From Patescibacteria group bacterium (lineage in GTDB: Bacteria > Patescibacteriota > Patescibacteriia > JAXHNJ01): a DNA stretch of 64,000 nt. Within the stretch, counting starts at the first letter, position 1, and each line of letters opens with the position of its first letter. The position numbers were made by a program, and so were the translations under genes. Positions 1,146 through 24,632 of the stretch are shown here, in pieces. The notes beneath the pieces are model-generated. The model was not told the DNA's origin and searched no databases. It saw nothing but the letters and a program-made list of their open reading frames with translations. Location: contig JAXHNJ010000002.1 of assembly GCA_034520665.1 (NCBI GenBank), forward strand, positions 416,660 to 480,659, read 5' to 3'.

Positions 1146-1159
1146 ATAAAAATTTAAAT

Positions 1160-4090: not shown

Positions 4091-4184
4091 AATGTTTATA
4101 TTATAACATTATTTTTTATATTTAAAAAAGAGCTTTTGCCCAAGCATGGCCGACAAAAGCTCTTAGATTATAAATAAATTATTA

Positions 4185-5255
4185 CTATTTTGAAAGTTGT
4201 TTTTTAAAATAATCAACTAAAGGAATTTTTTGCGGGTCTTTCTGGTTTAAAACAGCTAAATAAAAGCTAACAAAACTACCCAAAGTGAGTAGATAAAAGG
4301 ATTGACTTAAAAAATCTTTTCCTTTTAAATCAACATTAATTGATTTTAAATTTTTTTTGCCTAGAATATTTTTAGTTATTTTAAATCTTTTTTTCAAACG
4401 AGAAGGCAGTAAATTTGAAGGCAAAAAAATGAATAAAAATTTCTTTAATAAATCTGGATGCGATAAACCCTCTATTAAGTGATGATTCATTTCCGGTAAG
4501 GCATAATAAGCGGCAAAATTCTTGGCGTTTTCCTGTAATTGATTGGCTAAAACGTGAAGGTTGCCTAAAAAATCATTACTGGACAGCAAGACCGGCACCT
4601 TCTTGTGAATTTTAGAAGCTAATTTTTTAGCCGGGTTTTTATTAAAATCTTTTTTGGCCTCAAATTTTAAACTTTCTTTTTCAACTAATGATAAAGCTTT
4701 ATTAATTTCGCTTTTTTTTAGGTCTAAAAATTGAAGACGCCGTAAAATTTGTATTAATCCTCCAATTGAATAACCCAGGCCTAAACGAGGCTGGTTTGAC
4801 GGATTAAAAGAAGGCTTAAAAATATAAGCCGGTATTTTATTTTTTTTAGCTAGTTTTCCTAATTTACCTCCACTAGTGATTATTAATATTTTTGCCTGAC
4901 GTTTTATGGCTTTTTTGGTAGTTATAATTACCTCTTCAGTATGGCCTGAATAAGAGGAGGATAAAAATAATGTTTTTTTATCAACAAACCGGGGCAAACG
5001 ATAGCCAGAGATAATAGTAATCGGTTTTTTCAACTTGTCAGCTAGAGCCTGACGTAAAAGGTCACAGCCAATTTCTGATCCTCCCATACCACTTAAAACT
5101 ATTTTATCTACTTTTTTATAATGAGCCGGTAGCTTTATCTTTAATACTTCCGACAAGGATTGTTTGACCTGATCAGTTAAGCTTTCAATCGATTCTAAAA
5201 TCTGGCCTTGGTTGTATTTTTTTATTTGTTTTTGGCTGTTTAATATTTTTTTCAT
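4185..5255 (-). CDS. pgi: SIS-domain bifunctional phosphoglucose/phosphomannose isomerase (PGI/PMI family).
   Basis: KIVLSGMGGSEIGCDLL and SSSYSGHTEEV are SIS-domain motifs typical of archaeal/bacterial bifunctional PGI-PMI. Confidence 0.7.
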   Translation of the reverse strand: MKKILNSQKQIKKYNQGQILESIESLTDQVKQSLSEVLKIKLPAHYKKVDKIVLSGMGGSEIGCDLLRQALADKLKKPITIISGYRLPRFVDKKTLFLSSSYSGHTEEVIITTKKAIKRQAKILIITSGGKLGKLAKKNKIPAYIFKPSFNPSNQPRLGLGYSIGGLIQILRRLQFLDLKKSEINKALSLVEKESLKFEAKKDFNKNPAKKLASKIHKKVPVLLSSNDFLGNLHVLANQLQENAKNFAAYYALPEMNHHLIEGLSHPDLLKKFLFIFLPSNLLPSRLKKRFKITKNILGKKNLKSINVDLKGKDFLSQSFYLLTLGSFVSFYLAVLNQKDPQKIPLVDYFKKQLSK

Positions 5256-5325
5256 TGATTTTTATTCAAGCGATTATACTTTATCACAAAACTCTTTATA
5301 AAGGCAAATTATACTTAAGTTTCTG

Positions 5326-5361
5326 GTTTACTAAAGACACAAAAAATGTTATAATTTAACT
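5326..5361 (+). promoter_or_regulatory. Sigma70-like promoter for the yebC-ruvC operon.
   Basis: TTTACT-17 nt-TATAAT (tttactaaagacacaaaaaatgttataat) lies about 20 nt upstream of the ATG at 5380. Confidence 0.45.
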
Positions 5362-5379
5362 AATAATTGATATTTTTTT

Positions 5380-6099
5380 ATGTCCGGGCATTCAAAATGG
5401 TCAAAAATTAAAAGACAAAAGCAAGCTACTGACAAAAAAAAGGGTAAAATCTTTTCTAAATTATCCAAGACTATCTCCATAGCTGTTCGCGAAAAAGGCA
5501 AAGATCCGGCAGATAATTCTGATCTGCGCCTAGCTATTGAAAAAGCCAGGGAAGCTAATATGCCTTCCACAAATATTGAAAAGGCTATAAAAAGAGGAGC
5601 TGGAGAAATTGAAGGCCGGGAAATTGAACAAGGAATTTATGAAATATACGGCCCCGGAGGCCTGGCTATTATTGTAAAAGTGCTAACTGACAATAATAAT
5701 CGCACGGTTTCCGAAATTAAAAATATTGTCTCTGAACACGGCGGCAATCTCGGACAATCCGGCTCAGTACTTTATCTTTTTAATCAAATGGGGATAATTG
5801 AAATTGAACCTGAAAATTCAGATAAAGAAAAAATGTTTTTAGAAGTGGCCGAATTAGGCGCCGAGGATATTGAAGAAAGTAATGAAGTGATTAAAATTAT
5901 TACCAAAAAAGAAAACCTGCAAGAAATTCAAAAAGGATTGGAAAAAAAATATAAAATTACTTCCGCTGGTATAGGCATGATTCCGGAAGTTTTGGTAGAA
6001 ATCGAGAATGAAAAAGAAAAAAATAAATTAAAAAAATTATTAGAAGCTCTGGAAAATCAGGAAGACGTGGAGAAAATCTTCACTAATTTAAAAAAATAA
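5380..6099 (+). CDS. yebC: YebC/PmpR family DNA-binding transcriptional regulator.
   Basis: N-terminal MSGHSKWSKIKRQKQATDKKKGKIFSKLSK...LRLAIEKAREANMP is the YebC (DUF28) signature. Confidence 0.9.
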   Translation: MSGHSKWSKIKRQKQATDKKKGKIFSKLSKTISIAVREKGKDPADNSDLRLAIEKAREANMPSTNIEKAIKRGAGEIEGREIEQGIYEIYGPGGLAIIVKVLTDNNNRTVSEIKNIVSEHGGNLGQSGSVLYLFNQMGIIEIEPENSDKEKMFLEVAELGAEDIEESNEVIKIITKKENLQEIQKGLEKKYKITSAGIGMIPEVLVEIENEKEKNKLKKLLEALENQEDVEKIFTNLKK

Positions 6100-6101
6100 A
6101 T

Positions 6102-6581
6102 ATGAAAATACTCGGTCTAGACCCAGGATTGGCTTATACTGGTTACGCTATAATTAAAAAAGAAAAAAATAATATTGAAGTTATTAAATACGGCTGTTTA
6201 AATACCCAGGCTGGAGAAAAAATAGAAAATCGGCTCAACAATATTTTTAAAAAATTAAATAAAATAATAAACCAATATAACCCTGATAAAATGGCGGCTG
6301 AAAATCTATATTTTTGCAAAAATGTTAGTTCCGCCTTTAAAGTTGGTCAGACTAAGGGCATTATTAATTTAGCCGCGGCTAAAAAAAAGATTCCTATTTT
6401 TGAATATACCCCCCTTCAGATTAAGCAAGCTATTACCGGTTATGGCCGGGCTAGTAAGAGTCAGGTTCAAAAAATGCTGAAAAGTATTTTAAAACTAAAA
6501 AAAATACCTACGCCTGATCACGCCTCAGACGCCCTGGCCGTGGCTTACTGCTGTGCCAGTACTAAAGAATATTTAAAATGA
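6102..6581 (+). CDS. ruvC: Crossover junction endodeoxyribonuclease RuvC.
   Basis: MKILGLDPGLAYTGYAII has the catalytic Asp at the start of an RNase H-like fold. Length and position after yebC are typical. Confidence 0.9.
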   Translation: MKILGLDPGLAYTGYAIIKKEKNNIEVIKYGCLNTQAGEKIENRLNNIFKKLNKIINQYNPDKMAAENLYFCKNVSSAFKVGQTKGIINLAAAKKKIPIFEYTPLQIKQAITGYGRASKSQVQKMLKSILKLKKIPTPDHASDALAVAYCCASTKEYLK

Positions 6582-7654
6582 AAAATAAGAAAAAAATTCA
6601 AAAACTTATTAAAAGTTCTAAGGCCGTTATTTCAGACTGTGCCTTGGAAAATGGGGCCATTGTCGCCGCTAATACTGATAAATCTTATTATCCTCGAGAA
6701 GCCGGAAATTACCGCTATGTCTGGCCTCGGGACGCTTCTTTTATCTGTCTGGCTGGAAAGTATTTAAATCTTTCTTTAGCAGAAAAATTTTTAGTATGGC
6801 TTTATAAAAAACCCGAGGACTTTAAAAAAGAAAAGCTGCTTTATGCTAATTATTCAACTAATGGCCGTATAGCTTCTCTTGGTTCTCAATTTGAACCAGA
6901 TCAAATGGGTATAGTCCTCTGGTTAATACATTTTTTATATAAAGATAACTTAAACAACGCTTTAAAGCACCAAGCTCTTATAAAAAGATTGGCTGAAGGA
7001 CTTTGTCAAGCTTGGAATAAAACTTATTTTCTCCCTAATACTTTGGATCTCTGGGAGGACGGTTTTAGGAAAACTTCTTCAGTTATGGAAAATAACTTCA
7101 CTTATTCTCTGGCTGCCTGCGCCCGCGGGCTCCTGTGTGCTCATGAAATTATACCAAACAAAAATTGGGAGAAAACGGCCAAGCAAATGATTTCAGAAAT
7201 TGAAGAAGCCTACAGTAAAGAATTTGGCTATTTCTTACGTAATTGCGGCCGTATCTGTGACAAAAATATTGACGCCTCTTTAGTCGGGTTGGTCTGGCCT
7301 TTTGAAATTATATCCCCAAAAGATGAAAGAATAATTAAGACAATTAAAAAAATTGAGCAGAATATTGTCGTTAGTGGCGGAGTTCACCGTTTTCAGTTTG
7401 ATTATTTTGATTCAGAAGGTACAGCTTGGGAAGGCGGTGGGGCCTGGCCTGTTTTAAACTTTTGGCTGGCTATATATTGGCACTTGGCCGGCCATAAGAA
7501 AAAGGCTGAATCTTATTATCAGTGGGTTATTGAGAGAGTAGATAAATATATCCCTGAACAAATTTTTCAGGATTTTCGCCAAGGTATCTCCCCTCTAGCC
7601 TGGAGTCACGCCATGTTTATTATAGCTAGCCATTATTTAGGATATTTAAAATAA
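6578..7654 (+). CDS. Glycoside hydrolase family 15 (glucoamylase/glucodextranase-like) catalytic (alpha/alpha)6 domain.
   Basis: YVWPRDASFI and LDLWEDG are GH15 catalytic-region motifs. The ORF overlaps the ruvC stop by 4 nt. Confidence 0.7.
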   Translation: MKNKKKIQKLIKSSKAVISDCALENGAIVAANTDKSYYPREAGNYRYVWPRDASFICLAGKYLNLSLAEKFLVWLYKKPEDFKKEKLLYANYSTNGRIASLGSQFEPDQMGIVLWLIHFLYKDNLNNALKHQALIKRLAEGLCQAWNKTYFLPNTLDLWEDGFRKTSSVMENNFTYSLAACARGLLCAHEIIPNKNWEKTAKQMISEIEEAYSKEFGYFLRNCGRICDKNIDASLVGLVWPFEIISPKDERIIKTIKKIEQNIVVSGGVHRFQFDYFDSEGTAWEGGGAWPVLNFWLAIYWHLAGHKKKAESYYQWVIERVDKYIPEQIFQDFRQGISPLAWSHAMFIIASHYLGYLK

Positions 7655-9114
7655 TGAATAAAAAATTAAAAATTTTAATAGTCAGTCCGGAAATTTCTCC
7701 CTATGCTAAAACCGGGGGGCTGGGCGACGTGGCTAACGCCCTACCAAAAGCTTTAGCTAAAATGGAAGAAGACGTTTCTCTAGTTATGCCTTACTATAGC
7801 TTCATTAAAAAACAAAAATTAAAAACTAAAAAATTAGCTGAAGAAGAAATAAAAATTGGTAAAAGTAAATATCCTGTTATTTTTTTTAGAACTTGGTTTC
7901 AGTCAAAGTGTCCGCTTTATTTAATCTATAATAAAGAATTTTTTGAGCGCCAAAAAATGTACGGAGAAAAAGATGATAACTTAAGGTTTCTCTTCTTTGA
8001 TAAAGCTGTTTTAAAAATGGTTAAGAGACTTAATCTAGAGCTTGATCTAATACATTGCCATGACTGGCAGAGTGGCCTTATTCCTAATTTTATAAAAAAA
8101 TCTAAAAATAAAAAACTCTCTAGTATAGCCACTCTCTACACTATTCATAATCTCCCTTTTCAATTCCAACAAGACTGGTGGAGAGTCTCAAAAAAAAATA
8201 AAGATCATGGTCGAGGCCGACCTAAAATTCAAGATAAAAGAAAAATAAAATACATTAATTTTGCTCATCGAGCCATTAAAAACTCTGATATTATAAACAC
8301 TGTCTCCCAGCGCTACGCCAAAGAAATATTAACTCATAAATTTGCTCAGGGACTAGACAAAATTTTAAAAGAGAGAAAAAAAGATATATATGGTATTATT
8401 AACGGTATTGATTACACAGTTTTTAACCCAGCCTTTGATAAGAATATAAACTATAATTATGATTGGAATTCCCTGGATAAAAAAAAGAAAAATAAAATAG
8501 TATTACAAAAAGAAGTCGGTCTGGAAAAAAAAGCAGAAACTCCTATTATCGGCTTAGTTCACCGCCTGACAGAGCAAAAAGGTTTTGACTTAATCTTACA
8601 AATAATTGAATATCTTTTAAAACTTAATTTACAGATCATAGTTGTCGGCTCGGGTAATAAATCTTATATAAAATCCTTTAAAAAATTATCCCGTAAAAAA
8701 CCGAAAAAAATTGCTATTTACGCTCCTTTCACCGAGAAAATGGCCTCGCGAGTTTATGCTGGCTCTGATATGTTTCTTATGCCTTCACGCTATGAACCCT
8801 GCGGTATTTCTCAGCTTATTAGTATGCGTTATGGTTCTATACCCATAGTCCATGAAACCGGTGGGCTTTCTGATACTATTACCAATTATAATCCCCGCAC
8901 AGCCAAAGGCAATGGTTTTAAATTCTCCCGCTACAGCAAAGAAGATCTTTTAATGGCTATCGTCAGAGCTTTGGAAAATTTTAAACACCGTAAATCATGG
9001 GAACATTTAACCTGGCAGGCTATGAGGCTTTCTTTTTCCTGGGAATTACCCGCTAAAAAATATTTAGCTCTTTACCGCAAAGCTGTAGATAAACATAAAA
9101 AAATAAAAAAATGA
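7654..9114 (+). CDS. glgA: Glycogen/starch synthase (GT5 family, GlgA).
   Basis: N-terminal EISPYAKTGGLGDVANALPKALA (the KxGGL motif). C-terminal GT-B domain with SRYEPCGISQL. Confidence 0.85.
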   Translation: MNKKLKILIVSPEISPYAKTGGLGDVANALPKALAKMEEDVSLVMPYYSFIKKQKLKTKKLAEEEIKIGKSKYPVIFFRTWFQSKCPLYLIYNKEFFERQKMYGEKDDNLRFLFFDKAVLKMVKRLNLELDLIHCHDWQSGLIPNFIKKSKNKKLSSIATLYTIHNLPFQFQQDWWRVSKKNKDHGRGRPKIQDKRKIKYINFAHRAIKNSDIINTVSQRYAKEILTHKFAQGLDKILKERKKDIYGIINGIDYTVFNPAFDKNINYNYDWNSLDKKKKNKIVLQKEVGLEKKAETPIIGLVHRLTEQKGFDLILQIIEYLLKLNLQIIVVGSGNKSYIKSFKKLSRKKPKKIAIYAPFTEKMASRVYAGSDMFLMPSRYEPCGISQLISMRYGSIPIVHETGGLSDTITNYNPRTAKGNGFKFSRYSKEDLLMAIVRALENFKHRKSWEHLTWQAMRLSFSWELPAKKYLALYRKAVDKHKKIKK

Positions 9115-10343
9115 TTTGGTCTAACCTGCTTCACATCTATCAGCCACCCAACTGGGATAAAAAAATTATTAAAAAAGTAGCTAAAGAAAGTTATCAGCCA
9201 ATTTTAAATATATTAGAAAAAAATCCAGCTATTAAAATTACCCTCAATATTAACGCCTCATTAACTGAACAATTAGTTGCCTGCGGTTATAAAAATATTA
9301 TTAATCAGATCAAAAATTTAGCCCAAAAAGAACAAATTGAATTCACACACAGTGCCAAATTTCATTTAATACTGCCGCTTTATTCCTTAAAAACAATTGA
9401 AAGGCAAATTCGTCTTAACCAAAAAACAAATTTAAAATATTTCGGTAAAGTTTATCAGCCTAAAGGTTTTTTCCCGCCGGAAATGGCCTGGCATAATAAG
9501 TTAATCCCTATTCTGAAAAAATTTGCTATCGAGTGGGTAGCTCTAGATGAAATTTGCGCTCGGGGAGATCTAGGGAAAATTAGCTTTGACCAGGGTTATC
9601 AATCAAAAAAGGAAAATATTAAATTTATCTTCCGCAACCGCAAGATTAGCGACTACTTTATTTTTGAACCAGAGACAAAAAATATAAATAAATTTTTCAG
9701 CAATATTAAAAAAGAAAAAAGAGGCCAAAAAATACTAATTTCAGCCATGGACGGTGAAAATCTGGGGCATCATCGGCCTGGAGCTGATAAAATCTGGCAA
9801 AAATTAATGACAAATAAAAAAGTTAAATCAATGAATTATACTTCATTACTAAAAGAATACAATCAATTTAAAAAAATAAAATCAGTTCCAGGCAGCTGGT
9901 CTTCAGAAGTAAAAGAAATTAAAAATAATATTCCTTATGCTTTATGGAAAAATCATAATAACCCGATACACAAAATACAGTGGCAGTTAAATAATAAGGT
10001 AATCTCCTTGTTTAAGTTAGCCAAAAAAAGAAAAGATAAAAATATTCACAAAACTCAAAAAATGCTTGATCGAGCCCTGGCCTCTGATAAATTTTGGTGG
10101 GCTTCTATGCGGCCTTGGTGGGACTATGAAATAATTATCAGAGAGTCAAAAGAATTATATAATGTTATTTTAGCTTTAGAAAGTTTGAAGACCGAAGAAA
10201 AAAAATCAGCTAAGAAAATATTTAAAGAATTAAAAGAAAACACAACCAAATATGAAAAACAAGGCTTAGCAAAAGAAAATATTAAAAAATATTTAAATAA
10301 AATCGGATTTATCCCTAAAATGGGAGGAGAAAAAATAATTTAA
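9111..10343 (+). CDS. Glycoside hydrolase family 57 protein (alpha-glucan branching/transferase/amylase family).
   Basis: LLHIYQPPN matches GH57 region I, KGFFPPEMAW region III and ISAMDGENLGHH region IV (catalytic Asp and DGE-FGHH). Confidence 0.7.
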   Translation: MIWSNLLHIYQPPNWDKKIIKKVAKESYQPILNILEKNPAIKITLNINASLTEQLVACGYKNIINQIKNLAQKEQIEFTHSAKFHLILPLYSLKTIERQIRLNQKTNLKYFGKVYQPKGFFPPEMAWHNKLIPILKKFAIEWVALDEICARGDLGKISFDQGYQSKKENIKFIFRNRKISDYFIFEPETKNINKFFSNIKKEKRGQKILISAMDGENLGHHRPGADKIWQKLMTNKKVKSMNYTSLLKEYNQFKKIKSVPGSWSSEVKEIKNNIPYALWKNHNNPIHKIQWQLNNKVISLFKLAKKRKDKNIHKTQKMLDRALASDKFWWASMRPWWDYEIIIRESKELYNVILALESLKTEEKKSAKKIFKELKENTTKYEKQGLAKENIKKYLNKIGFIPKMGGEKII

Positions 10344-10350
10344 AAAACAT

Positions 10351-11712
10351 ATGTATTGGGCCAATTTTTTACACATTTATCAACCACCCACTCAAAAACC
10401 TTATTGGGTAAAAAAAATCGCTAACGAAGCTTATCGCAAGATTATAGCTGGTTTAAAAGAAAACCCTGAAGCTAAATTAACTCTTAATGTTAGTGCTGTT
10501 CTTTTAGAACTTTTTGAAGAAAACAACCTCATGGATATAATCAATGATCTTAGGAAATTAATAAAAAAAGGACAAGTAGAGCTTACCGGCAGTGCTAAAT
10601 ACCATCCTCTTTTACCAAAATTGCCTGAAGATGAAATAATAAGGCAAATAGAAATTAACAAAGAAACTCATAAAAAATATTTTGGAGATTTATTTGAAGC
10701 CAAGGGTTTTTTCCCGCCGGAAATGGGTTACTCTGACAAGGTAGCTAAAGTAGCGGAGAAAATGGGTTTTGATTGGGTTATTGTTGATGAACTTTCTTTC
10801 CCGGAAAATAAAGGAGAAATTGATTATTCTAAAATATACCAGGTAAAAAATACTAAAGATTTTAAAATATTTTTTCGCGAGAGAAAAATGAGCTGGAAAA
10901 TTCTTTCTGGACAATATGGCACTGGAAATTTACTAATTAATAGCCTGGGGGAAAGGCTTAAAAAAAATGAATACTTATTAACAGCTATGGACGGCGAAAC
11001 TTTTGGTCATCACCGGCCCGGTATGGAACACCTTCTTTTTGAAATCTATGAGTCTAAAAAATTAAAAACTGTCTTAATTTCTGAACTACCCCAAATATTT
11101 AAAAAACGGGAGAAAATTAAACCCCAGCCTTCCACTTGGGCTTTGATGGAAAAAGATTTGGAAAGAAACGCGCCTTTTTCTCGTTGGGAAGACCCAGGCA
11201 ATAAAATACACCAAAAACAGTGGCAGCTACAAAACCTAGCCATAGATTCTTTTAAAAAATACTCGGGAGACGACCCGGCCGTAAAAAAAATACGACATCT
11301 GCTTGACCGGGCTTTACATTCCGATCAATTCTGGTGGGCTTCAGCCAAGCCTTGGTGGAGCCTGGAAATGATTGAAGCCGGAGCTAAAGAACTTAATGGT
11401 GTTGTCCAAAATTTAAATAAAGCCCCTGACAAGATTAAAGAAAAAGCCAAAGAACTCTATCACGAAATAGTTTTTACTGGTTTTGAATGGCAGCGAAACG
11501 GAACCGTTGAAAATCTAAGCAAACAAGAAGATGAAGAAATACGTCAGCATACTGATGATGCCCTGCCAAAAATGCCCAAAAAAGAAATTGATAAAATTAT
11601 CAACAATCTTAAAAAAGAAATAAAAGCGGTAGTAGAAAAAGAAGAATACGAAAGAGCAGCCCAGCTGCGTGATCGTATAAAAGAATTAAAAAATTATGAA
11701 AAGAAAAAATAA
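10351..11712 (+). CDS. GH57 paralog with a C-terminal UVR (UvrB/UvrC-type) motif.
   Basis: FLHIYQPP, KGFFPPEMGY and LTAMDGETFGHH are GH57 motifs. The C-terminal EKEEYERAAQLRDRIKELK is a UVR coiled-coil motif. Confidence 0.7.
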   Translation: MYWANFLHIYQPPTQKPYWVKKIANEAYRKIIAGLKENPEAKLTLNVSAVLLELFEENNLMDIINDLRKLIKKGQVELTGSAKYHPLLPKLPEDEIIRQIEINKETHKKYFGDLFEAKGFFPPEMGYSDKVAKVAEKMGFDWVIVDELSFPENKGEIDYSKIYQVKNTKDFKIFFRERKMSWKILSGQYGTGNLLINSLGERLKKNEYLLTAMDGETFGHHRPGMEHLLFEIYESKKLKTVLISELPQIFKKREKIKPQPSTWALMEKDLERNAPFSRWEDPGNKIHQKQWQLQNLAIDSFKKYSGDDPAVKKIRHLLDRALHSDQFWWASAKPWWSLEMIEAGAKELNGVVQNLNKAPDKIKEKAKELYHEIVFTGFEWQRNGTVENLSKQEDEEIRQHTDDALPKMPKKEIDKIINNLKKEIKAVVEKEEYERAAQLRDRIKELKNYEKKK

Positions 11713-13724
11713 TGAAATATTTTAAACAAACCAAAAATAAAAAAGTAATGCGCCACTTTTTCAATTTAATAACCAAACAATACTATCCACCTGGCTCTAA
11801 ACTTAAAAAAATAGAAATTCATGATCAAAGTGGCACCTCTTTTAAAAAGGCTTTGAAATATATCCTTAAAATAAAACTGCCTTCTGGAAAAGAGGTAAGG
11901 AAAATCATCCGCGGCAATGTACCCTCCCGTGACACCCGGGAAGAAAGTTATATTGCCGACCGCACAAAAAAGATGTTATTTCAAAAAGATTTTGTCTCAG
12001 AAACCTGTCAAATTCCTTTTCCTCTAGGCTACTACAAAAAATTAAATTTAGTTCTTTATGAAGAATTTCCCGGAAAACCTTTTGCCTGTTTTATAAATAA
12101 AAGAAAAAGAATTAAAGAAATAACCCGAAAATCAGCTTATTGTTTGGCCCGTCTGCATAATATGAGAATAAAAAATAGTAAAAAGAAAAAATTATCAGAA
12201 ATTAAAGATGAAATTAGTTATTTTAAAGAAGATTATAAAAATAATTACCCGGATGTTTACGCTTTTGGCGCTTCCTTGCTAGACAATCTCTTCCCATTAA
12301 TCAAAAATGAGATTTTTAAAAACAAAAAGAAATTTATTTTAACTCACGGGGATTTCAACCCTAACAACATTATAGTCTGCGGGAAAAAAACGGCTCTGAT
12401 TGACTGGGGAAGAAGTAATCTTTTTGACCCCTTGAGTGACATGGGTAATTTTTTTGCCCAGCTCAATATTTTTAACTGGTGTGAGAATATTAGCCAAGAA
12501 AAAATAAAAAAAATTAAATTAACTTTCCGACATAAATATTTACAAGAAAGAAATATTACTTATCAAGCAATAAAAAGAAAACTAATAATTCATGAACTTT
12601 GGTGGATGATGCAAATTATGGCCTACACCGTTTCTACTCGCGATCCTCATGTTTCTCAGTTATTAGTTAATAAAACCCTAGAAAAAGCCCGCAAATACGC
12701 TAATTGGCTAGGCTTGGAAATTAATGAAGACATATTAAAAACAAAAAAATACCACGATTTAAAAAAGATTTTTAAAGACAAAGAGATAATGATGAAACTC
12801 TATTGTAAGGGGCGAAGAAAAATATTTCCCCAGGCTAAAAACATTATTGACCTGGAAATTGAACACCCTAAAGCGCTTTCACAAACTAGTTTTTTAACCC
12901 GTACTAAAATTACCTATACTAATAAAAAAAATAAGCCCGAAGAAATCACTATTAGAGGTAATACCATTAACAAAAACACTTTTCAAATAATGGAGTACGT
13001 TTACAAAAAAAATAAGAAAAATTTAATTTCTCCCCGCCCCCTATATTATTTTCCTGTGGTGCCTTATCTGCTTTACGAAGAGGTTCCGGGAAAACCTTTG
13101 AGAAAAATCTCTTTTAATTCAGCTAAATTTGCCAGACTAGTAAAAAAATCCGCTTTGGCCTTAGCTAACCTGCACAAACTTAAACCCCAAGGCATAAAAA
13201 AAAGAAATTTAAAAGAAAAAGAATATTTCAAAGAACTAAGAAAAAAAATAAAAAAATACGACCCAAAAAACAAAAAAATTATTTTTAAATACGTCCGCCT
13301 CTATCATAAAAAAATCCACCCCTCATTCAGAAAATCAAAAAGAGTCCTCACCCATAATGACTTTCAGGCTTCCAATATTATTGTCACTCCAGAAAATAAA
13401 ATAGCTATTATTGATTTTACTTTATCTTCAATGTTTTACCCCTCTTTTGATTTGGCCTGCTTCATTACCCATTTGAGAATTATGTTAGCCGATAAAGTTA
13501 GCCATAAAAAAATTGAAAAATTGCAAAAAAGTTTTCTTAATACCTATTTAAAAAAAATGTCTAAAGCCCGAGTTAAACAAATTAAAAAAAATCTCGGCTT
13601 GGCTCAAGTTCGGGCCGCTTTAGATATTTGGGCTATAACTGCTACTTTGATGGGGAAAAATGACAAAAATCGCCAAAAATATGTTAATATATTAAATAGA
13701 ATAATAAAAACTAATTTAAAATAA
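11712..13724 (+). CDS. Tandem-duplicated aminoglycoside-phosphotransferase/choline-kinase-fold kinase (two APH-like domains); putative sugar kinase (maltokinase-like?).
   Basis: Domain 1 has THGDFNPNNIIV (Brenner HGDxxxxN) and IDWGRSNLFDPLSDMG. Domain 2 has THNDFQASNIIV and IDFTLSSMFYPSFDLA. The gene sits between GH57 and glgA. Confidence 0.55.
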   Translation: MKYFKQTKNKKVMRHFFNLITKQYYPPGSKLKKIEIHDQSGTSFKKALKYILKIKLPSGKEVRKIIRGNVPSRDTREESYIADRTKKMLFQKDFVSETCQIPFPLGYYKKLNLVLYEEFPGKPFACFINKRKRIKEITRKSAYCLARLHNMRIKNSKKKKLSEIKDEISYFKEDYKNNYPDVYAFGASLLDNLFPLIKNEIFKNKKKFILTHGDFNPNNIIVCGKKTALIDWGRSNLFDPLSDMGNFFAQLNIFNWCENISQEKIKKIKLTFRHKYLQERNITYQAIKRKLIIHELWWMMQIMAYTVSTRDPHVSQLLVNKTLEKARKYANWLGLEINEDILKTKKYHDLKKIFKDKEIMMKLYCKGRRKIFPQAKNIIDLEIEHPKALSQTSFLTRTKITYTNKKNKPEEITIRGNTINKNTFQIMEYVYKKNKKNLISPRPLYYFPVVPYLLYEEVPGKPLRKISFNSAKFARLVKKSALALANLHKLKPQGIKKRNLKEKEYFKELRKKIKKYDPKNKKIIFKYVRLYHKKIHPSFRKSKRVLTHNDFQASNIIVTPENKIAIIDFTLSSMFYPSFDLACFITHLRIMLADKVSHKKIEKLQKSFLNTYLKKMSKARVKQIKKNLGLAQVRAALDIWAITATLMGKNDKNRQKYVNILNRIIKTNLK

Positions 13725-15196
13725 TGAAAAAAAGCAAAATTTTACTCACCGCTGCTGAATTAACGCCTATGGCCAAGGTTGGCGGCCTGGCTGATGTTAT
13801 CGGAGCCTTACCCAAAAATCTCATTCGAAACCATGTAGATACCCGTATTATTATCCCCAAATATGGTATTATCGATGAAAAAGAATACAATCTTAAAAAA
13901 ATCGCCTCTGATATTAAAGTCCCTTTTGGGAATAAAGAAGAGCTAATCAATATTTGGCAGAGTCATTTGCCGGGCAGCGCTGTTTTGGTTTATTTTATCG
14001 ATAACCAAAAATACCTGGGACGAAATGGAGTATATTTTGAAAAAGACGCTTCGCCGGGCGGATCATCACCGGAATGCCAGCGTTTTACCTTTTTCTCGCG
14101 CAGTATTTTTGAAACCTTTAAACCGCTTAATTTCCACCCGGAGGTTATTCATCTTCATGACTGGCATGTTGGTATTATTCCTTTTTTAAAAAATTACCTC
14201 GGACAAAAAAATCCATCTATTAGAAAAATAAAAACTCTCCTGACTATTCATAATCTGGCCTACCAGGGTAATTATAACTATAGAGAGGTTTTAGATTATC
14301 TCAACATAAAAAAAGAAGAGGCAAAAAATATGAAATTCATGCCCCTTGATAAAAATAACATTAAATATCTGCGCCAGGCTATTTTACACGCTGATTCCCT
14401 TAATACTGTTAGCCCCACTTACGCCCAGGAAATAATGAACGCCGAATATGGCGCCGGATTGGAAAAAGAGCTGCAAAAAAGAAAAGAAGATTTACACGGC
14501 ATTCTTAACGGAATTGATGTAGAAAGATTTAATCCGGCACTTGATCAAGAAATAATCAAGCAATATTCAATAGACAGATTAGAAAACAAAAAAATCAATA
14601 AAAAAAATCTTCAAAAAATTTCCGGGCTAAAGCAGTCTGAAGATACTCCAGTTTTAGGTCTAGTCGGACGCCTGGCAGAACAAAAAGGCATTGATCTTAT
14701 CTTGCAAATTTTACCCAAGCTAGCTAAAAATAACTGTCAATTAGTTTTATTAGGTACCGGCAATAAGGAGCTGGAAGAAAATTTAAAAAAAGCAGCTAAA
14801 AAATATAAAAACTGGCTCTCAGCTACTATAGATTTTGACGCTTCTTTGGCTCAGAAAATATACGCTGGCTCTGATATGTTTCTTATGCCTTCACGCTACG
14901 AGCCTTGCGGCCTGGGTCAGATGATCGCTATGCGCTACGGTAATATCCCTATTGTCCGGGCCACCGGGGGACTGGCTGATACTGTACATGAATTTAATCC
15001 AGAAAATGAGGTAGGCACTGGTTTTTGCTTTGAAAAATTTGAGGCGAGTGAGTTCTATAAAGCAACAAAAAGAGCCTTAGAAGTCTATAAAAATAAAGAA
15101 AAATGGCTGAAATTAATGAAAAATGGTATGAAAAAAGATTTTTCCTGGAATAAATCAGCTAAAAAATATATTGAGCTATATCATCAACTAATATAA
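13724..15196 (+). CDS. glgA: Glycogen synthase (GT5, GlgA), second copy.
   Basis: LTPMAKVGGLADVIGALPKNL and SRYEPCGLGQM. It is a paralog of the 7654..9114 gene. Confidence 0.85.
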   Translation: MKKSKILLTAAELTPMAKVGGLADVIGALPKNLIRNHVDTRIIIPKYGIIDEKEYNLKKIASDIKVPFGNKEELINIWQSHLPGSAVLVYFIDNQKYLGRNGVYFEKDASPGGSSPECQRFTFFSRSIFETFKPLNFHPEVIHLHDWHVGIIPFLKNYLGQKNPSIRKIKTLLTIHNLAYQGNYNYREVLDYLNIKKEEAKNMKFMPLDKNNIKYLRQAILHADSLNTVSPTYAQEIMNAEYGAGLEKELQKRKEDLHGILNGIDVERFNPALDQEIIKQYSIDRLENKKINKKNLQKISGLKQSEDTPVLGLVGRLAEQKGIDLILQILPKLAKNNCQLVLLGTGNKELEENLKKAAKKYKNWLSATIDFDASLAQKIYAGSDMFLMPSRYEPCGLGQMIAMRYGNIPIVRATGGLADTVHEFNPENEVGTGFCFEKFEASEFYKATKRALEVYKNKEKWLKLMKNGMKKDFSWNKSAKKYIELYHQLI

Positions 15197-15201
15197 TCTA
15201 T

Positions 15202-16200
15202 ATGTCCAGAAAAAAAACGAAAAAAACAAAAAGAAAAAAATCTAAATCTCCTAAAAATACCAAAAAGATTAATAAAAAAAGAGCTGAAATAAGGCAGGAT
15301 TATATCCATGACCGCGCGATAGTGGTTGCCCCTAGTCGCGGTAAAAGACCGCATCATTTTGAAGAAGAGGGAAAACCTGAAGAACTACCTAAAAAAACTT
15401 GTCCTTTTTGTCCCGATAAACAAAAGGGGGTCACGGCGTTGGCTAAAAAAGGGCGAGGCAATAAATGGAAAATCAAAGTAGTCAAAAACATTTTTGCTGC
15501 TGTCACTTTGGATAATGCCAAAGCTTATGGTCAGCAAGAAGTAGTTATTGAAACACCAAAACATGATCAGGAAATGGCCGAATTACCGATTAATCATATC
15601 CAGGATATTTTAAAAATCTACCAAAAAAGAACCGTTGATATTGCCAAAAATGAAAAAATGCGCTATATCTTAATTTTTAAAAACAACGGTGGCCGAGCCG
15701 GTGCTTCGATCACCCACGCCCATTCGCAAATTTTTGCTACCTCTTTTTTACCGCCTCATATTCTTAGTAAATTAACTCGGGCCCAGGAATACAAAATACA
15801 AATGGGTCATTGTTATTACTGTGATTTAACTAAAAAAGCGCCAAAAACTCCGCGCTTTGTTTGGGAAGATGAAAATGTTTCCTGCTTTACTCCTTATGCC
15901 TCCACCTATAATTATGAAGCCTGGATTTTGCCAAAAAGACACGTGGATAATATTGCCCATCTCAACAAAAAAGAGATTAATTCCATAGCCAAAATACTAA
16001 AAAAATTACTTGACAAACTTCATAAACATAAACTACCCTATAATTATTATCTCCATCAGGCTATCCATTATGATGACGAACATTTTTATTTACGAATTTC
16101 TCCTCGTAGAAATGTATGGGCCGGGTTGGAGTTGGGTTCGCGTTTAATAGTTAATTCTATGCCGCCGGAAGAAGCAGCCAAGTTTTATCGGAAAAAATAA
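15202..16200 (+). CDS. GalT-like HIT-superfamily hexose-1-phosphate nucleotidyltransferase (galactose-1-phosphate uridylyltransferase / ADP-glucose phosphorylase-like), with a K-rich N-terminal tail.
   Basis: CPFCPDKQKG is a GalT class I zinc motif. SITHAHSQIF carries the HxHxQ active site. The N-terminal 30 residues are almost entirely Lys/Thr/Arg. Confidence 0.7.
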   Translation: MSRKKTKKTKRKKSKSPKNTKKINKKRAEIRQDYIHDRAIVVAPSRGKRPHHFEEEGKPEELPKKTCPFCPDKQKGVTALAKKGRGNKWKIKVVKNIFAAVTLDNAKAYGQQEVVIETPKHDQEMAELPINHIQDILKIYQKRTVDIAKNEKMRYILIFKNNGGRAGASITHAHSQIFATSFLPPHILSKLTRAQEYKIQMGHCYYCDLTKKAPKTPRFVWEDENVSCFTPYASTYNYEAWILPKRHVDNIAHLNKKEINSIAKILKKLLDKLHKHKLPYNYYLHQAIHYDDEHFYLRISPRRNVWAGLELGSRLIVNSMPPEEAAKFYRKK

Positions 16201-16212
16201 TTTTACTAATAT

Positions 16213-16246
16213 AAAAAGACAGACTCGAAAAGAATCTGTCTTTTAT
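16213..16246. terminator. Bidirectional rho-independent terminator between the galT-like gene (+) and tyrS (-).
   Basis: The hairpin AGACAGA-ctcgaaaagaa-TCTGTCT has A-rich sequence on the 5' side and TTTTATT on the 3' side. Confidence 0.6.
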
Positions 16247-16248
16247 TA

Positions 16249-17454
16249 TTATTTGATTTTTAAAAACTTTCTTTTGCCGACTTTGATAATATCGTTTTTC
16301 TTGAAATTTATTTCTTTTTTAGGGTCTTTTATTTTTTTATCATTCATCGAAACCCCACCTTGCTCTATAAGTCGCCTGGCTTCGCTTTTACTCGTGGCTA
16401 AATCTGACTCCACTAGTAAGTCAATAATCGGTAATTTATTCTTTGTCGGGGAAAATATCGGAATATCGGAAGGACATTCTTTATTTTTAAAAACTTTTTC
16501 AAACTCTTTCTCGGCTGCCTTGGCTTTTTCTTCTGAATGATAAAGACTAACAATTTCACGGGCTAATCTGGCCTTATAATTTCGCGGATTATCGCCGGCT
16601 TCAAGGGCTTTTTTTATTTCTTCAACTTCTGATAAAGAAATTCGGGTAGCTAAAGTAAAATAATCAATTATCAATTTATCCGGAATAGACATAACTTTGC
16701 CAAACATATCGCCTGGTTCATCCCGTAAAGCAATATAATTATTAAAGGTTTTACTCATTTTCCGTCCGTCAGTGCCCATTAAATAATTAAGGGTCAATAT
16801 ATCCTGCACCGGCTGGTCCAGAGACCCTTGAATAGTCCGGCCCATCAGTAAATTAAATTTTTGTTCAATGGCCCCCAGCTCCAGATCAGCCTTAACCGCC
16901 ACTGAATCATACCCCTGTAAAAAAGGATAAAGTATTTCATGAGTGGATAAAGGCTGGCCCTTTTCCAAGCGTTTTTTAAAAGTTTCGTGAGATAGTATTT
17001 GAGCCAAGGTAGCTTTTGAAGTCAGGTCAATCACCGTCTGTAAATCAAATTCTTCAAACCATTCACTTTGCCATCTGATCTCAGTCTTTTTTTTATCTAA
17101 TATAATACTAGCTTGTTTAACATAATCCTTGGCATTTTTTTCTACTTGCTTATCAGAAAGCGGCTGTCGGGTTTTATCAAGACCCGAGGGATCACCGATA
17201 CGAGCGGTGTAATCACCGATAATTAAAACCACCTGGTGCCCTAATTCCTGAAAAGCCTTAAGCTTTAAAAGAGGAGCCGCATGACCAATATGCAAATCAT
17301 AACCTGTGGGATCAATACCCAGCTTAACTCTCAATTTTTTACCGGCATTAAGCTTTTTCTTTAAAACTTTTTCTTCAATTATCTCAGCTACGCCACGTTT
17401 GAGAATGTTTTTAATTATGTCTTTTTTATCCATAAGTATATTGAAAGTATACAA
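16249..17454 (-). CDS. tyrS: Tyrosyl-tRNA synthetase.
   Basis: HIGHAAPL (HIGH motif), KMSKT (KMSKS motif) and a C-terminal S4-like RNA-binding domain. Confidence 0.9.
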   Translation of the reverse strand: MYTFNILMDKKDIIKNILKRGVAEIIEEKVLKKKLNAGKKLRVKLGIDPTGYDLHIGHAAPLLKLKAFQELGHQVVLIIGDYTARIGDPSGLDKTRQPLSDKQVEKNAKDYVKQASIILDKKKTEIRWQSEWFEEFDLQTVIDLTSKATLAQILSHETFKKRLEKGQPLSTHEILYPFLQGYDSVAVKADLELGAIEQKFNLLMGRTIQGSLDQPVQDILTLNYLMGTDGRKMSKTFNNYIALRDEPGDMFGKVMSIPDKLIIDYFTLATRISLSEVEEIKKALEAGDNPRNYKARLAREIVSLYHSEEKAKAAEKEFEKVFKNKECPSDIPIFSPTKNKLPIIDLLVESDLATSKSEARRLIEQGGVSMNDKKIKDPKKEINFKKNDIIKVGKRKFLKIK

Positions 17455-17469
17455 TATTTTTGCTATAAT
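17441..17469 (+). promoter_or_regulatory. Sigma70-like promoter for the ROK glucokinase gene.
   Basis: TTGAAA (17441-17446), a 17-nt spacer, then TGcTATAAT (extended -10 at 17464-17469), 21 nt before the ATG at 17491. Confidence 0.5.
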
Positions 17470-17490
17470 GAAAACACTAAAAAAGTATTT

Positions 17491-18387
17491 ATGTCTTATT
17501 CTATTGGCCTAGACATTGGCGGCACTAAGATAAATACCGGTATTGTTAAAAATAACCGGGTTTTTAAAAATCACCAAATTAAAAGTCCGAGTAAAAAAGG
17601 ACCAAAAAAATTACTTCGCGAGATTAAAAAGGCTATTAATTATTACCAGCCTGAAAAGGCCAAAAATATTGCTATTTCCTTTGCCGGACCAGTAGATAAA
17701 AAAGGTAAAATTCTACACGCCACTAATTTTTCTTCCACCCTGGAAAACTATAACTTAAAAAAAGCTTTAAGAAAAATCTTTAAAAAAGAAATTTTTATTG
17801 AACACGACGGCTTTTGCTTTGTTCTGGCCGAAAGTATATTAGGCGCCGCCAAAAATTATAAATATATTATTGGTTTAACTTTGGGCAGCGGTATTGGCGG
17901 CGGTCTAGCAGTAGATAATAAAATTTATACCGGTTATAAAAATTTAGCTGAAATCGGACATTTTAAAATTTTAGAAAAAGGCTTCCAGTGCAGCTGCGGC
18001 CGTTTCGGTCATTTTGAAGCCCAGGCTTGCGGCTTTTCTTTAGAAAAATATTATAAAAAAATTACCGGCCAAAATAGATCTGGCAAGGAAATTTACAAAT
18101 TGTCTAAAAAGGGCGACAAAAAGGCTTTGAAAGCCGCGGAAATAACCGCCAAATACTTGGGCCTTGGCCTAGCCAGCTTAACTAATGTTCTAAGTCCGGA
18201 AATAATAGTGCTCGGCGGCGGTCTGTCCAACTTTACAAAAATAATTACTCTCTCTAAAAAAAGCTTTAAACAAGAATTAGTCGACCCTAGACATAAAAAA
18301 ACAAAAATAGTAAAATCTAAACTCGGACAAAAGGCTCTACTTTTAGGCGCTTACCTGACTACTAAAAAAAGAAATTATAAACTTTAA
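17491..18387 (+). CDS. glk: ROK-family glucokinase.
   Basis: The N-terminal IGLDIGGTKI is an ATP-binding motif. The ROK zinc motif is GHFKILEKGFQCSCGRFGHFEAQAC. Confidence 0.8.
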   Translation: MSYSIGLDIGGTKINTGIVKNNRVFKNHQIKSPSKKGPKKLLREIKKAINYYQPEKAKNIAISFAGPVDKKGKILHATNFSSTLENYNLKKALRKIFKKEIFIEHDGFCFVLAESILGAAKNYKYIIGLTLGSGIGGGLAVDNKIYTGYKNLAEIGHFKILEKGFQCSCGRFGHFEAQACGFSLEKYYKKITGQNRSGKEIYKLSKKGDKKALKAAEITAKYLGLGLASLTNVLSPEIIVLGGGLSNFTKIITLSKKSFKQELVDPRHKKTKIVKSKLGQKALLLGAYLTTKKRNYKL

Positions 18388-22638: not shown

Positions 22639-22914
22639 ATTATTAGATCCTTTATATATTTATTTAATTAATAGACGTATTAATAGGGTTATGTGGAAAT
22701 GTGGATTAATATTTTTAAATAGGGTTTTTTCTCTTTTAAGGAGTAGTAAAGCTATTTAAGAAATTAGTCTTTTGTGAAAAAGTATGTTAGTTTATTGTGA
22801 GGTAAGTGTTGATTAAATGAGGATAAATCCACTAGCCATTTTAAGAGGGAAAGTTATTAACAAATTACCATTAGTTTTTTGACAGGTTTATCCCAAGTTT
22901 ATACCCTAAGAAAT
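22639..22914. promoter_or_regulatory. Putative oriC segment (dnaA-dnaN intergenic) with degenerate DnaA-box-like 9-mers and AT-rich stretches.
   Basis: Contains TGTGGATTA and TGTGGAAAT (consensus TGTGGATAA) and TTATCCCAA (consensus TTATCCACA). No perfect box is present. The dnaA/dnaN location is canonical. Confidence 0.4.
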
Positions 22915-24619: not shown

Positions 24620-24632
24620 GGGTTAAACTTTT

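Follow-up and report, generated by a model that had tools for sequence, protein, structure and literature searches.

An alpha-glucan operon of Patescibacteria that joins a GalT-family HIT enzyme to a glycogen synthase, with a possible alternative supply of ADP-glucose

A 64,000-nucleotide stretch of the genome of a Patescibacteria group bacterium (GenBank assembly GCA_034520665.1, contig JAXHNJ010000002.1, positions 416,660 to 480,659 of the forward strand), which is referred to here as the window, contains seven co-oriented genes on the + strand at positions 6578–16200. The locus is nearly certain to be a glycogen-type alpha-glucan operon. It encodes two glycogen synthases (GlgA1 and GlgA2), three glycoside hydrolase-family enzymes (one of family GH15 and two of family GH57), a tandem kinase of the APH fold, and a histidine triad (HIT) nucleotidyltransferase of the GalT family. 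What is new about the locus is that the HIT enzyme and one or more APH-fold kinases are found in a glycogen operon where GlgC, GlgB, and GlgP would be expected; the proteins belong to known superfamilies and to uncharacterised subfamilies within them. The gene for the HIT enzyme adjoins that for GlgA2 in the window and in most evaluable loci of the Patescibacteria, also known as the candidate phyla radiation (CPR), and relatives of the HIT gene adjoin glgA genes in other bacteria. It is plausible, and put forward here tentatively, that the conserved operon provides Patescibacteria with an intracellular glycogen-like alpha-1,4/1,6-glucan by means of an alternative supply of ADP-glucose through the HIT enzyme.

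Bacterial glycogen synthesis is taught as two routes, GlgC-GlgA-GlgB and GlgE. If a pyrophosphorylase-free scheme is true, it would represent a third bacterial route to alpha-glucan beside GlgC-GlgA and GlgE, at an expense of one ATP for each glucose and with the possibility of running backwards as a phosphorolytic exit. The ADP-glucose phosphorylases, an orphan family to which the plant enzyme belongs, would thereby gain their first physiological role. The CPR cluster, in which GlgC, GlgB, and GlgP are not visible, points to either a cheaper activation of glucose or a new phosphorolytic exit, and the recurrent adjacency of HIT and glgA genes inside and outside the CPR is a testable lead whichever direction the enzyme runs.

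Organization of the operon

The genes of the operon are arranged in the following order (coordinates in the window, strand, product):
6578..7654, +, GH15 exo-glucosidase (glucoamylase/isomaltose-glucohydrolase-like), 358 residues; PF00723
7654..9114, +, GlgA1, GT5 glycogen/starch synthase; TIGR02095, PF08323
9111..10343, +, GH57a, 410 residues; PF03065
10351..11712, +, GH57b with a C-terminal UVR motif, 453 residues; PF03065, PF02151
11712..13724, +, fused tandem APH-fold kinase, 670 residues; PF01636 twice
13724..15196, +, GlgA2, GT5 glycogen/starch synthase, partner of the HIT gene; TIGR02095
15202..16200, +, class-I GalT-family HIT nucleotidyltransferase, 332 residues; PF01087, DUF4931_N, TIGR00209

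Calling of open reading frames (ORFs) returned these seven genes with exactly the coordinates of an earlier note on this DNA, which had proposed an operon with overlapping or abutting gene boundaries. The boundaries within the run are 1–4 bp overlaps (at 7654, 9111–9114, 11712, and 13724) or gaps of 5–7 bp, and the operon-like character of the alpha-glucan cluster is upheld. Catalytic motifs are intact in all seven genes. Homologues of the HIT enzyme, the kinase, and GH57b carry Patescibacteria or CPR labels; therefore, the assignment of the cluster to a reduced genome in the same note was correct.

The products of the last four genes correspond to the NCBI entries MDZ7798831–MDZ7798834, which are named UvrB/UvrC motif-containing protein (GH57b), phosphotransferase (the kinase), glycogen/starch synthase (GlgA2), and galactose-1-phosphate uridylyltransferase (the HIT enzyme). 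The annotation of GH57b (MDZ7798831.1) misses the GH57 domain, and the HIT enzyme appears under the name galactose-1-phosphate uridylyltransferase or as a DUF4931 protein. Because such routine names are wrong or vague, metabolic reconstructions miss or misread the pathway.

Conservation of the gene cluster in Patescibacteria

With an alignment of the HIT enzyme as the query, one genome for each GTDB species was scanned; at least 344 of these genomes contain a relative, and the best 80 loci were annotated. Genes of the CPR loci were assigned by phmmer with the window proteins as queries. The arrangement recurs in dozens of species-level genomes whose HIT enzymes are only 51–75% identical to that of the window, which is far beyond chance. 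The same gene order is present on three long contigs, including the complete Nomurabacteria genome CP060223.1. Of 71 evaluable CPR loci, 49 have the gene for GlgA2 directly upstream of that for the HIT enzyme; the median distance between the two genes is 4 bp, and the distance does not exceed 10 bp in 48 of 62 pairs. Conservation of the neighbourhood, which the earlier note had named as a test of its proposal, is thus very strong.

Complete clusters, containing GlgA1, GlgA2, and the HIT enzyme, were found at 46 distinct CPR loci. The genes yebC and ruvC precede the glucan genes in 43 of the 46. The kinase is positioned between GlgA1 and GlgA2 in 42 according to phmmer and in a 43rd (L040) according to Pfam. 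There are two GH57 copies in 22 of the complete clusters and one in 23. The GH15 gene is an optional member, which is located upstream of GlgA1 in 12 of the 46. The proteins differ in their degree of conservation: GH57b is the most conserved (59–70% identity across the radiation), the HIT enzyme is intermediate (51–56%), and the kinase is extremely divergent.

Some lineages contain extra genes, which encode a PHP phosphoesterase, a protein of about 190 residues, a GDE_C/GH100-like protein, GT4 glycosyltransferases, and ATP-grasp enzymes. The gene for the 190-residue protein lies between those for the kinase and GlgA2 (L030:7887–8465 and about 10 similar loci), and its product has no match in Pfam or NCBIfam. 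The PHP phosphoesterase gene occupies the same interval (L025:7653–8537 and L003:7600–8544); the nearest NCBIfam model is a 3',5'-nucleoside bisphosphate phosphatase, with a score below the cut-off.

The HIT gene is also found with other glycosyltransferase genes. In one CPR locus (L069, 1873–9922), the interval between ruvC and the HIT gene contains, in place of the glucan genes, five GT4 genes, a gene for a DUF218 protein, and a 606-residue ORF for which Pfam has no match. Two other loci have the order GT4-kinase-GT4-GT4-HIT (L066, 253–5320; L078, 5759–10912). These GT4 clusters indicate that the HIT gene, often together with the kinase gene, travels with GT-B glycosyltransferases generally. 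The arrangement suggests that, in some Patescibacteria, the HIT gene is the constant end of a glycan-synthesis cassette whose other genes can be exchanged. The position of the HIT enzyme, with or without the kinase, at the end of GT4 clusters fits the role of a supplier of sugar nucleotides.

Identity of the HIT enzyme

The HIT enzyme matches PF01087 and DUF4931_N, and its score of 106.8 bits against TIGR00209 (galT) is just above the cut-off of 102.1 bits. The earlier note had described a GalT-type HIT enzyme with CPFC and HxHxQ motifs, and these are present as C67-P-F-C70 and H172-A-H174-S-Q176 in a protein of class I. The residues of both motifs and H121 are invariant or nearly so among the CPR homologues, as are C204, C207, and E310. 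His174 is the predicted nucleophile, Cys67-x-x-Cys70, His121, and His172 are predicted to form a zinc site, and Cys204-x-x-Cys207 a second site. The HxHxQ motif and the Cys/His residues of the zinc site are common to the Arabidopsis protein At5g18200 and the GalT of Pyrobaculum aerophilum (P. aerophilum). The lysine-rich N-terminal segment of about 25 residues is not conserved.

The best match of the HIT enzyme in the PDB is At5g18200 (1Z84/2H39), which has been reported to be an ADP-glucose phosphorylase and not a GalT (PMC6329318; bioRxiv 10.64898/2026.09.13.751320). At5g18200 scored 164 bits with the single HIT sequence and 211 bits with a profile of the CPR proteins, compared to 114 and 151 bits for P. 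aerophilum GalT, and 70 and 99 bits for Escherichia coli (E. coli) GalT. Neighbour-joining (NJ) distance trees, which were calculated with few reference sequences, have the topology (E. coli, (P. aerophilum, (CPR clade, At5g18200 + bacterial clade))). Whether the enzyme clusters with GalT of the Leloir pathway had been named beforehand as a check, and it groups with At5g18200. The placement with ADP-glucose phosphorylase combines the best PDB match with a sister position in distance trees of few references, yet the pairwise identity of 30% to At5g18200 equals that to P. aerophilum GalT; the identity to E. coli GalT is 27%.

An identity as a Leloir GalT of the E. coli type was considered and rejected: the score against PRK11720 is 124 bits, compared to a cut-off of 448, and E. 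coli GalT is the weakest match of the three characterised relatives. Pfam found no galK/GHMP galactokinase and no galE/epimerase among the scanned ORFs of the window. Judged from its sequence, the HIT enzyme is clearly not a Leloir GalT, and we infer that it would function as an ADP-glucose phosphorylase.

Linkage of HIT and glgA genes outside the CPR

Metagenomes were scanned with an alignment that had At5g18200 as its first sequence, and 80 loci were listed, of which one (L087) is Arabidopsis DNA and 79 are prokaryotic. The prokaryotic loci have a GC content of 34–72%, and their HIT proteins are 38–43% identical to At5g18200; the non-CPR HIT proteins are 26–34% identical to that of the window. 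Of 76 loci, 20 have a gene for a GT5 GlgA directly adjacent to the HIT gene; among the 44 with at least 1.5 kb of sequence on each side, the number is 14. The HIT gene mostly precedes glgA; the reverse order is also present, and the GC content of the linked loci spans 40–71%. The GlgA-linked HIT members outside the CPR are basal in the NJ tree, beside At5g18200 and the CPR clade. No APH kinase was found by phmmer in the non-CPR HIT loci.

The link between HIT and GlgA is real and widespread, and the HIT enzyme is not inherently a substitute for GlgC. Because the adjacency is tight, repeated, and phylogenetically independent, functional coupling of the HIT enzyme to GlgA2 is well supported. Full-text searches of the literature turned up neither this cluster nor HIT-glgA adjacency, nor any bacterial glycogen operon described as containing a GalT-like enzyme. 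The terms "GalT" and "histidine triad" do not occur in the accessible part of a 2024 Chem Rev review of alpha-glucan enzymes.

Glycogen synthases and glycoside hydrolases

GlgA1 and GlgA2 score 517.1 and 541.9 bits, respectively, against the NCBIfam model TIGR02095, which has a cut-off of 328.45 bits. The two paralogues are 41% identical to each other, and both have intact K-x-G-G-L, HDW, SRYEPCG (containing the catalytic glutamate), and TGGL motifs; the N-terminal motif reads AKTGGLGDV in one and AKVGGLADV in the other. At the family level both synthases appear to be of the ADP-glucose type of GT5, and they are predicted to use ADP-glucose as the donor.

The GH15 protein scores 56.5 bits against PF00723, compared to a cut-off of 22, and consists of the catalytic (alpha/alpha)6 domain only. 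It aligns to positions 253–609 of the 616 positions of TIGR01577 and lacks the N-terminal beta-sandwich domain. Its closest sequence match in the PDB is the single-domain isomaltose glucohydrolase 5z3a.

GH57a and GH57b score 106.6 and 126.6 bits, respectively, against PF03065. They are paralogues with 37% sequence identity that both keep the glutamate of FFPPEM and the aspartate of MDGE. In GH57b, E124 and D214 are invariant across 25 homologues, and the UVR motif (PF02151) spans residues 414–448. The homologues of GH57b are 59–100% identical to it, and every named one is from the CPR. GH57a has no match in NCBIfam. An AlphaFold2 (AF2) model of GH57b, with a predicted local distance difference test (pLDDT) score of 86.6, confirms the GH57 fold. 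Foldseek places it at about equal similarity (template modelling score of about 0.6) to the 4-alpha-glucanotransferase of T. litoralis, three GH57 branching enzymes, and amylopullulanases.

The earlier note had proposed branching or transfer by the GH57 enzymes. As members of the GH57 branching-enzyme subfamily the two proteins were rejected: the NCBIfam branching-enzyme models give 22–27 bits against cut-offs of 920–1000, Pfam detects no BE_C domain (PF09210), and the lengths of 410 and 453 residues compare to an expected 520 or more. GH57a and GH57b may be considered a separate minimal GH57 subfamily, for which branching, chain transfer, and hydrolysis are all candidate activities.

Local absence of GlgC and other canonical enzymes

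The earlier note had pointed out that glgC, a GH13 glgB, and glgP are missing from the window. The window has 52 ORFs of at least 100 residues, and Pfam scans of 46 of them bore this out; the remaining six overlap longer annotated ORFs, or lie within them, on the opposite strand. No NTP_transferase/GlgC, GH13, GT35, or phosphoglucomutase (PGM) domain was detected among the 46. The search was extended to the CPR loci with the sequence of E. coli GlgC, which was validated by matches of 363–379 bits in three non-CPR loci (L118, L113, and L151). No GlgC-like gene was found by phmmer at E ≤ 1e-3 among 2325 ORFs of 85 CPR loci that include flanks of about 10 kb around the HIT gene. The motif GGxG[TSEKQ]R[LFMI] is absent from the same 85 loci, and no GGxGxR[L] motif is present in the window. 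In L113 and L151, by contrast, GlgC is encoded 4–5 kb from the HIT gene.

The tandem kinase

The kinase consists of two fused paralogous APH-fold domains, the N half encoded at about 11712–12716 and the C half at about 12717–13724. Both keep the H-x-D-x4-N and I-D-x motifs (HGDFNPNN and LIDWG in the N half, HNDFQASN and IIDFT in the C half). D215, N220, and D233 do not vary among 32 canonical members. An AF2 model with a pLDDT score of 80 confirms the APH fold of the kinase, and the structures that come closest to it are those of APH(2''), PsiK, choline kinase, and methylthioribose (MTR) kinase. The structure search with Foldseek and a profile of the 32 sequences match APH(2''), APH(3'), PsiK, the choline/ethanolamine, MTR, and homoserine kinases, and the kinase domain of ACAD11. 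From its motifs and model, the protein looks like an active, generic small-molecule kinase of the APH fold.

Fused tandem kinases are limited to about nine close relatives. Other lineages carry the kinase as one gene or as two unfused genes, for proteins of 300–377 residues; where two are adjacent, they have the same N-then-C order as the fusion. Identity to the C half of the window kinase is 15–31% in the canonical set, and a subgroup of the CPR kinases, designated Kin*, is barely detectable. Two clusters (L054 and L058) seem to have no kinase.

Candidate identities as a maltokinase (Mak/Pep2) or as NahK were rejected: phmmer with the single sequence gave no match of any kind in the PDB, and neither these enzymes nor AmgK are among the top profile matches or the 50 Foldseek matches listed. 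In NCBIfam, AmgK gives no more than a faint match (E = 0.0014).

Proposed supply of ADP-glucose

In the proposed mechanism, GlgA1 and GlgA2 would polymerise glucose from ADP-glucose, and the one or two minimal GH57 enzymes would remodel or branch the chains. For mobilisation, GH15 would free glucose, which a ROK-family kinase and phosphoglucose isomerase (PGI), both encoded near the operon, would return to glycolysis. The HIT enzyme would interconvert glucose 1-phosphate (Glc-1-P) + ADP and ADP-glucose + phosphate (Pi) via adenylyl-His174, in the manner of the Arabidopsis ADP-glucose phosphorylase. Because there is no GlgC in the neighbourhood, the reaction would run mainly towards ADP-glucose, pulled by the synthase. 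The APH-fold kinase or kinases would supply the sugar 1-phosphate (glucose + ATP -> Glc-1-P + ADP), as in the kinase-GalT pairs of the Leloir type.

GlgA2 and the HIT enzyme together would constitute an ADP-catalysed system for glucan + Pi <-> Glc-1-P that is independent of pyrophosphate and in principle reversible. Thermodynamically, the sum of the HIT and GlgA reactions, glucan(n) + Glc-1-P <-> glucan(n+1) + Pi, is the equilibrium of glycogen phosphorylase with ADP as a catalytic carrier. Therefore, the pair could serve synthesis at high Glc-1-P and phosphorolysis at high Pi. The most economical interpretation is, in our view, a bidirectional ADP-glucose shunt of this kind. If GlgC is truly absent, which presupposes that the gene is missing from the whole genome as it is from the neighbourhood, the shunt would by necessity serve net synthesis in this organism.

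A more specific version of the scheme is that many Patescibacteria make glucan with no nucleoside diphosphate (NDP)-glucose pyrophosphorylase, through a kinase acting on C1 of glucose or maltose, reversal of the HIT reaction, and coupling to GlgA2; this is possible but doubtful. It fits the CPR data, in which the neighbourhood contains no pyrophosphorylase, the kinase occupies the slot filled by a pyrophosphorylase or another nucleotidyltransferase in related non-CPR operons, and kinase and HIT genes accompany GT4 clusters. From the kinase-HIT-GlgA scheme of the earlier note, the operon, the position of the HIT enzyme on the At5g18200 side, the conservation, and the local absence of GlgC have stood, whereas the specificity of the kinase and the branching class of the GH57 enzymes found no support. 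Similarly, the claim of an APH-fold sugar kinase was borne out as regards a tandem APH fold encoded between GH57 and the second glgA, and not as regards the sugar.

Several observations weigh against a supply of ADP-glucose by the kinase and the HIT enzyme. The transfer of activity from At5g18200 is uncertain because the identity of 30% is matched by that to a genuine GalT, from P. aerophilum. The reaction of At5g18200 reportedly follows a ping-pong mechanism via adenylyl-His186, and its equilibrium constant is said to be about 5–40 towards ADP and Glc-1-P, the degradative direction. Outside the CPR, HIT-GlgA pairs coexist with nucleotidyltransferases: one locus has the order GlgC-GH57-HIT-GlgA (L118, 2362–8317); another contains genes for GH57, a GH57 4-alpha-glucanotransferase, HIT, DUF4912, a GH57 branching enzyme, an NTP_transferase/PGM fusion, and GlgA (L123, 696–12914); and a TIGR03991-type nucleotidyltransferase gene is immediately upstream of HIT-GlgA in six loci (L093, where the three genes are at 1072–5070, L119, L121, L106, L159, and L162). 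Therefore, the ancestral role of the HIT enzyme was not the replacement of a pyrophosphorylase. "Glycogen biosynthesis ability" has been reported for pooled CPR genes (PMC12114108), so some CPR bacteria may well have glgC. In five CPR loci (L072, L073, L075, L081, and L082), ruvC is followed directly by the HIT gene with no glgA or kinase gene in the DNA of the locus, which indicates that the HIT gene can persist alone. The kinase has no specific similarity to known sugar-1-kinases. In a subgroup of the CPR kinases (L003:6669–7655, L004:7541–8530, and 14 similar CPR loci), which is the sole kinase type in 10 complete clusters, the motif H[QY]EPYAS[HA]...IDWE replaces HGDxxxxN (Asp to Glu, Asn to His/Ala), and the fused kinase of L068 (6523 onwards) has a degenerate C half. 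Judging from these motifs, the proteins of this subgroup and the L068 kinase may be pseudokinases or enzymes with altered chemistry.

Alternative explanations

The HIT enzyme may instead work in the direction of At5g18200 (ADP-glucose + Pi -> ADP + Glc-1-P), as an energy-conserving valve for surplus ADP-glucose or, with reversal of GlgA2, as a phosphorolytic exit from glucan that is independent of GlgP, while GlgC or another pyrophosphorylase is encoded elsewhere in the genome. The explanation is a serious one, although somewhat improbable. It is supported by the presence of GlgC or other nucleotidyltransferases in the non-CPR HIT-GlgA operons (L118, L123, and the L093 group), by the equilibrium of At5g18200, which reportedly lies on the side of phosphorolysis, by the lack of a GT35 phosphorylase in the Pfam scans of the window, and by the specific pairing of the HIT enzyme with one of the two synthases. 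However, flanks of about 10 kb in 80 CPR species contain no pyrophosphorylase although other glucan genes cluster there, and a hydrolytic exit is already provided by GH15 and the ROK kinase. To our knowledge, reversal of a GT5 synthase in vivo has not been documented, which also counts against a phosphorolytic exit.

A second alternative concerns the kinase or kinases, which may phosphorylate the glucan or maltooligosaccharides, as plant glucan dikinases do, or a regulatory protein. It is compatible with any scenario for the HIT enzyme, and is judged possible but not probable. The nearest relatives of the kinase (APH(2''), APH(3'), choline kinase, and the ACAD11 kinase domain) phosphorylate hydroxyls of sugars or of small molecules in general, the sequence of the kinase changes very rapidly, canonical catalytic residues are missing from some copies, and L054 and L058 seem to manage with none. 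A PHP phosphoesterase gene follows that of the kinase in several CPR loci; however, its product resembles phosphatases of nucleotide bisphosphates, at scores below the cut-offs, and not those of proteins or glucans. The invariance of D215, N220, and D233 in the canonical members and the retention of the kinase with the HIT gene in GT4 clusters that have no GlgA or GH57 (L066, L078, and L056) also speak against a glucan or regulatory substrate.

It is distinctly unlikely that the HIT enzyme is a true GalT-type exchanger of NDP-hexose and hexose 1-phosphate, probably specific for UDP, which together with the APH kinase forms a Leloir-like salvage pathway feeding GT-B enzymes, with synthases that use UDP-glucose. 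The TIGR00209 score just above the cut-off, the equal pairwise identity to P. aerophilum GalT and At5g18200, the HIT genes with or without a kinase at the ends of the GT4 clusters L066, L078, and L069, and the precedent of the NahK-GalT2 pairing are in its favour. By contrast, the profile scores and NJ trees favour the At5g18200 side, the window contains neither galE nor galK, and both synthases are well above the cut-off for GlgA of the ADP-glucose type. An exchange reaction requires a pre-existing pool of NDP-sugar; therefore, it would by itself leave the problem of supply unsolved.

The remaining explanation, that the HIT enzyme is a housekeeping salvage enzyme for nucleotides or NDP-sugars at a fixed position near oriC, adjacent to glgA2 through inherited gene order with no functional link, draws on the synteny of the whole region (PGI, yebC, ruvC, tyrS, PBP1, dnaN, and dnaA) in the CPR and on the position of the HIT gene directly after ruvC where glucan genes are absent, but is very improbable in view of the independent HIT-glgA adjacency outside the CPR at 40–71% GC and in both gene orders, the 4-bp gaps and overlaps typical of translational coupling, and the association of the HIT gene with other glycosyltransferase clusters.

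Genomic surroundings

The genes next to the operon that are referred to above are the following:
4185..5255, -, bacterial-type phosphoglucose isomerase (PGI), divergent neighbour; PF10432, 120 bits
5380..6099, +, YebC/TACO1-family gene, first of the run; PF01709/PF20772
6102..6581, +, RuvC; PF02075, 180.7 bits
17491..18387, +, ROK-family (gluco)kinase, downstream neighbour; PF00480, 204 bits

The co-oriented run begins at yebC, upstream of ruvC, which starts 2 bp after yebC. The start of the GH15 gene overlaps the stop of ruvC by 4 bp; therefore, yebC and ruvC are probably in the same transcription unit as the glucan genes. A promoter-like site with an extended -10 element (10/12 match with TG) is located at 5327–5355, ahead of yebC. 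In a promoter and terminator scan of positions 5000–17600, sites were no more common than in shuffled sequence and no internal terminator stood out. An Rfam scan of the window returned one tRNA only and no regulatory RNA near the cluster.

PGI and the ROK kinase flank the cluster, as the earlier note had it. According to Pfam, the cluster is followed by tyrS, the ROK kinase gene, a gene for a class-A penicillin-binding protein (PBP), dnaN, and dnaA. PGI is at the same position in many CPR loci, the ROK kinase gene is found between tyrS and the PBP1 gene in about 20, and surroundings comprising PGI, yebC, ruvC, tyrS, the class-A PBP gene, dnaN, and dnaA are syntenic across many Patescibacteria. 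The replication-origin genes dnaN, dnaA, rnpA, and yidC are located at 21544–26023, which places the glucan operon about 5 kb from dnaN.

Other parts of the window contain further unusual genes. Two large ORFs of 438 and 537 residues on the - strand at 1160–4090 have no Pfam match, and their DNA has a GC content of 0.25–0.29. A stand-alone ORF at 42385–42690 scores 108.8 bits against PF05635, the family of the "23S rRNA intervening sequence protein"; no rRNA was detected in the window by Rfam. A fused 1284-residue phosphoribosylformylglycinamidine (FGAM) synthase, in which PurL is joined to a glutamine amidotransferase domain, is encoded on the - strand at 43883–47737. Because this is the only GC-rich stretch of the window (0.43–0.47, compared to 0.25–0.39 elsewhere), it may have been acquired horizontally. 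An 897-residue subtilase with FG-GAP repeats and a module resembling glucodextranase domain B, encoded on the - strand at 48235–50928, is probably a surface protein unrelated to the operon.

Comparison with known systems

At5g18200 resembles the HIT enzyme of the window over its full length and shares with it the HxHSQ motif of the nucleophile, the CxxC/His zinc site, the second CxxC, and a C-terminal G-x-E-x-G that resembles a sugar-binding motif. However, the two are about 30% identical, the CPR proteins form their own clade, and no pathway context is known for the plant protein, whereas the HIT gene abuts glgA.

The classical GlgC-GlgA-GlgB pathway is similar in its ADP-glucose-type GT5 synthases and in an operon that includes degradative enzymes. 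By contrast, the searched window and CPR neighbourhoods lack GlgC, a GH13 GlgB, and a GT35 GlgP, and the CPR cluster has two synthase paralogues, GH57 in place of GH13 enzymes, and the addition of the HIT enzyme and APH kinases. The glg cluster of Sulfolobus acidocaldarius has the order glgX-gaa[GH15]-glgC-amyA[alpha-amylase]-glgA (PMC8158581). It resembles the CPR cluster in having genes for GlgA, a GH15 glucoamylase, and an alpha-amylase while a GlgB is not recognisable; it differs in that glgC is present and genes for a HIT enzyme and an APH kinase are not. The CPR GH15 enzyme has no N-terminal domain, and the CPR GH57 enzymes are much shorter than the product of S. acidocaldarius amyA, which we take to be a GH57 enzyme.

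A kinase gene close to a GalT-family HIT gene is also a feature of GalK-GalT and of the galacto-N-biose/lacto-N-biose (GNB/LNB) pathway of Bifidobacterium, with NahK and GalT2. NahK is an APH-fold kinase that acts on the anomeric position; by analogy, the NahK-GalT2 pair may be seen as a precedent for an APH-fold anomeric kinase beside a GalT-family HIT gene. However, GalT2 belongs to class II and the HIT enzyme of the window to class I, the kinase-GalT pathways of the Leloir type are catabolic and include GalE, and no specific similarity between the CPR kinase and NahK could be detected.

The GlgE pathway (TreS-Pep2/Mak, GlgE, and GlgB) also joins an APH-fold kinase to alpha-glucan synthesis that is independent of the GlgC step. 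It differs in that the window encodes no GlgE or TreS (GH13), the matches listed for the kinase include no maltokinase, and polymerisation is assigned here to GT5 enzymes. Finally, the "galT"-glgA operons outside the CPR, which unlike the CPR cluster contain a sugar-1-phosphate nucleotidyltransferase and no APH kinase, have in common with it a HIT enzyme of the same broad clade encoded beside a GT5 synthase, often together with GH57.

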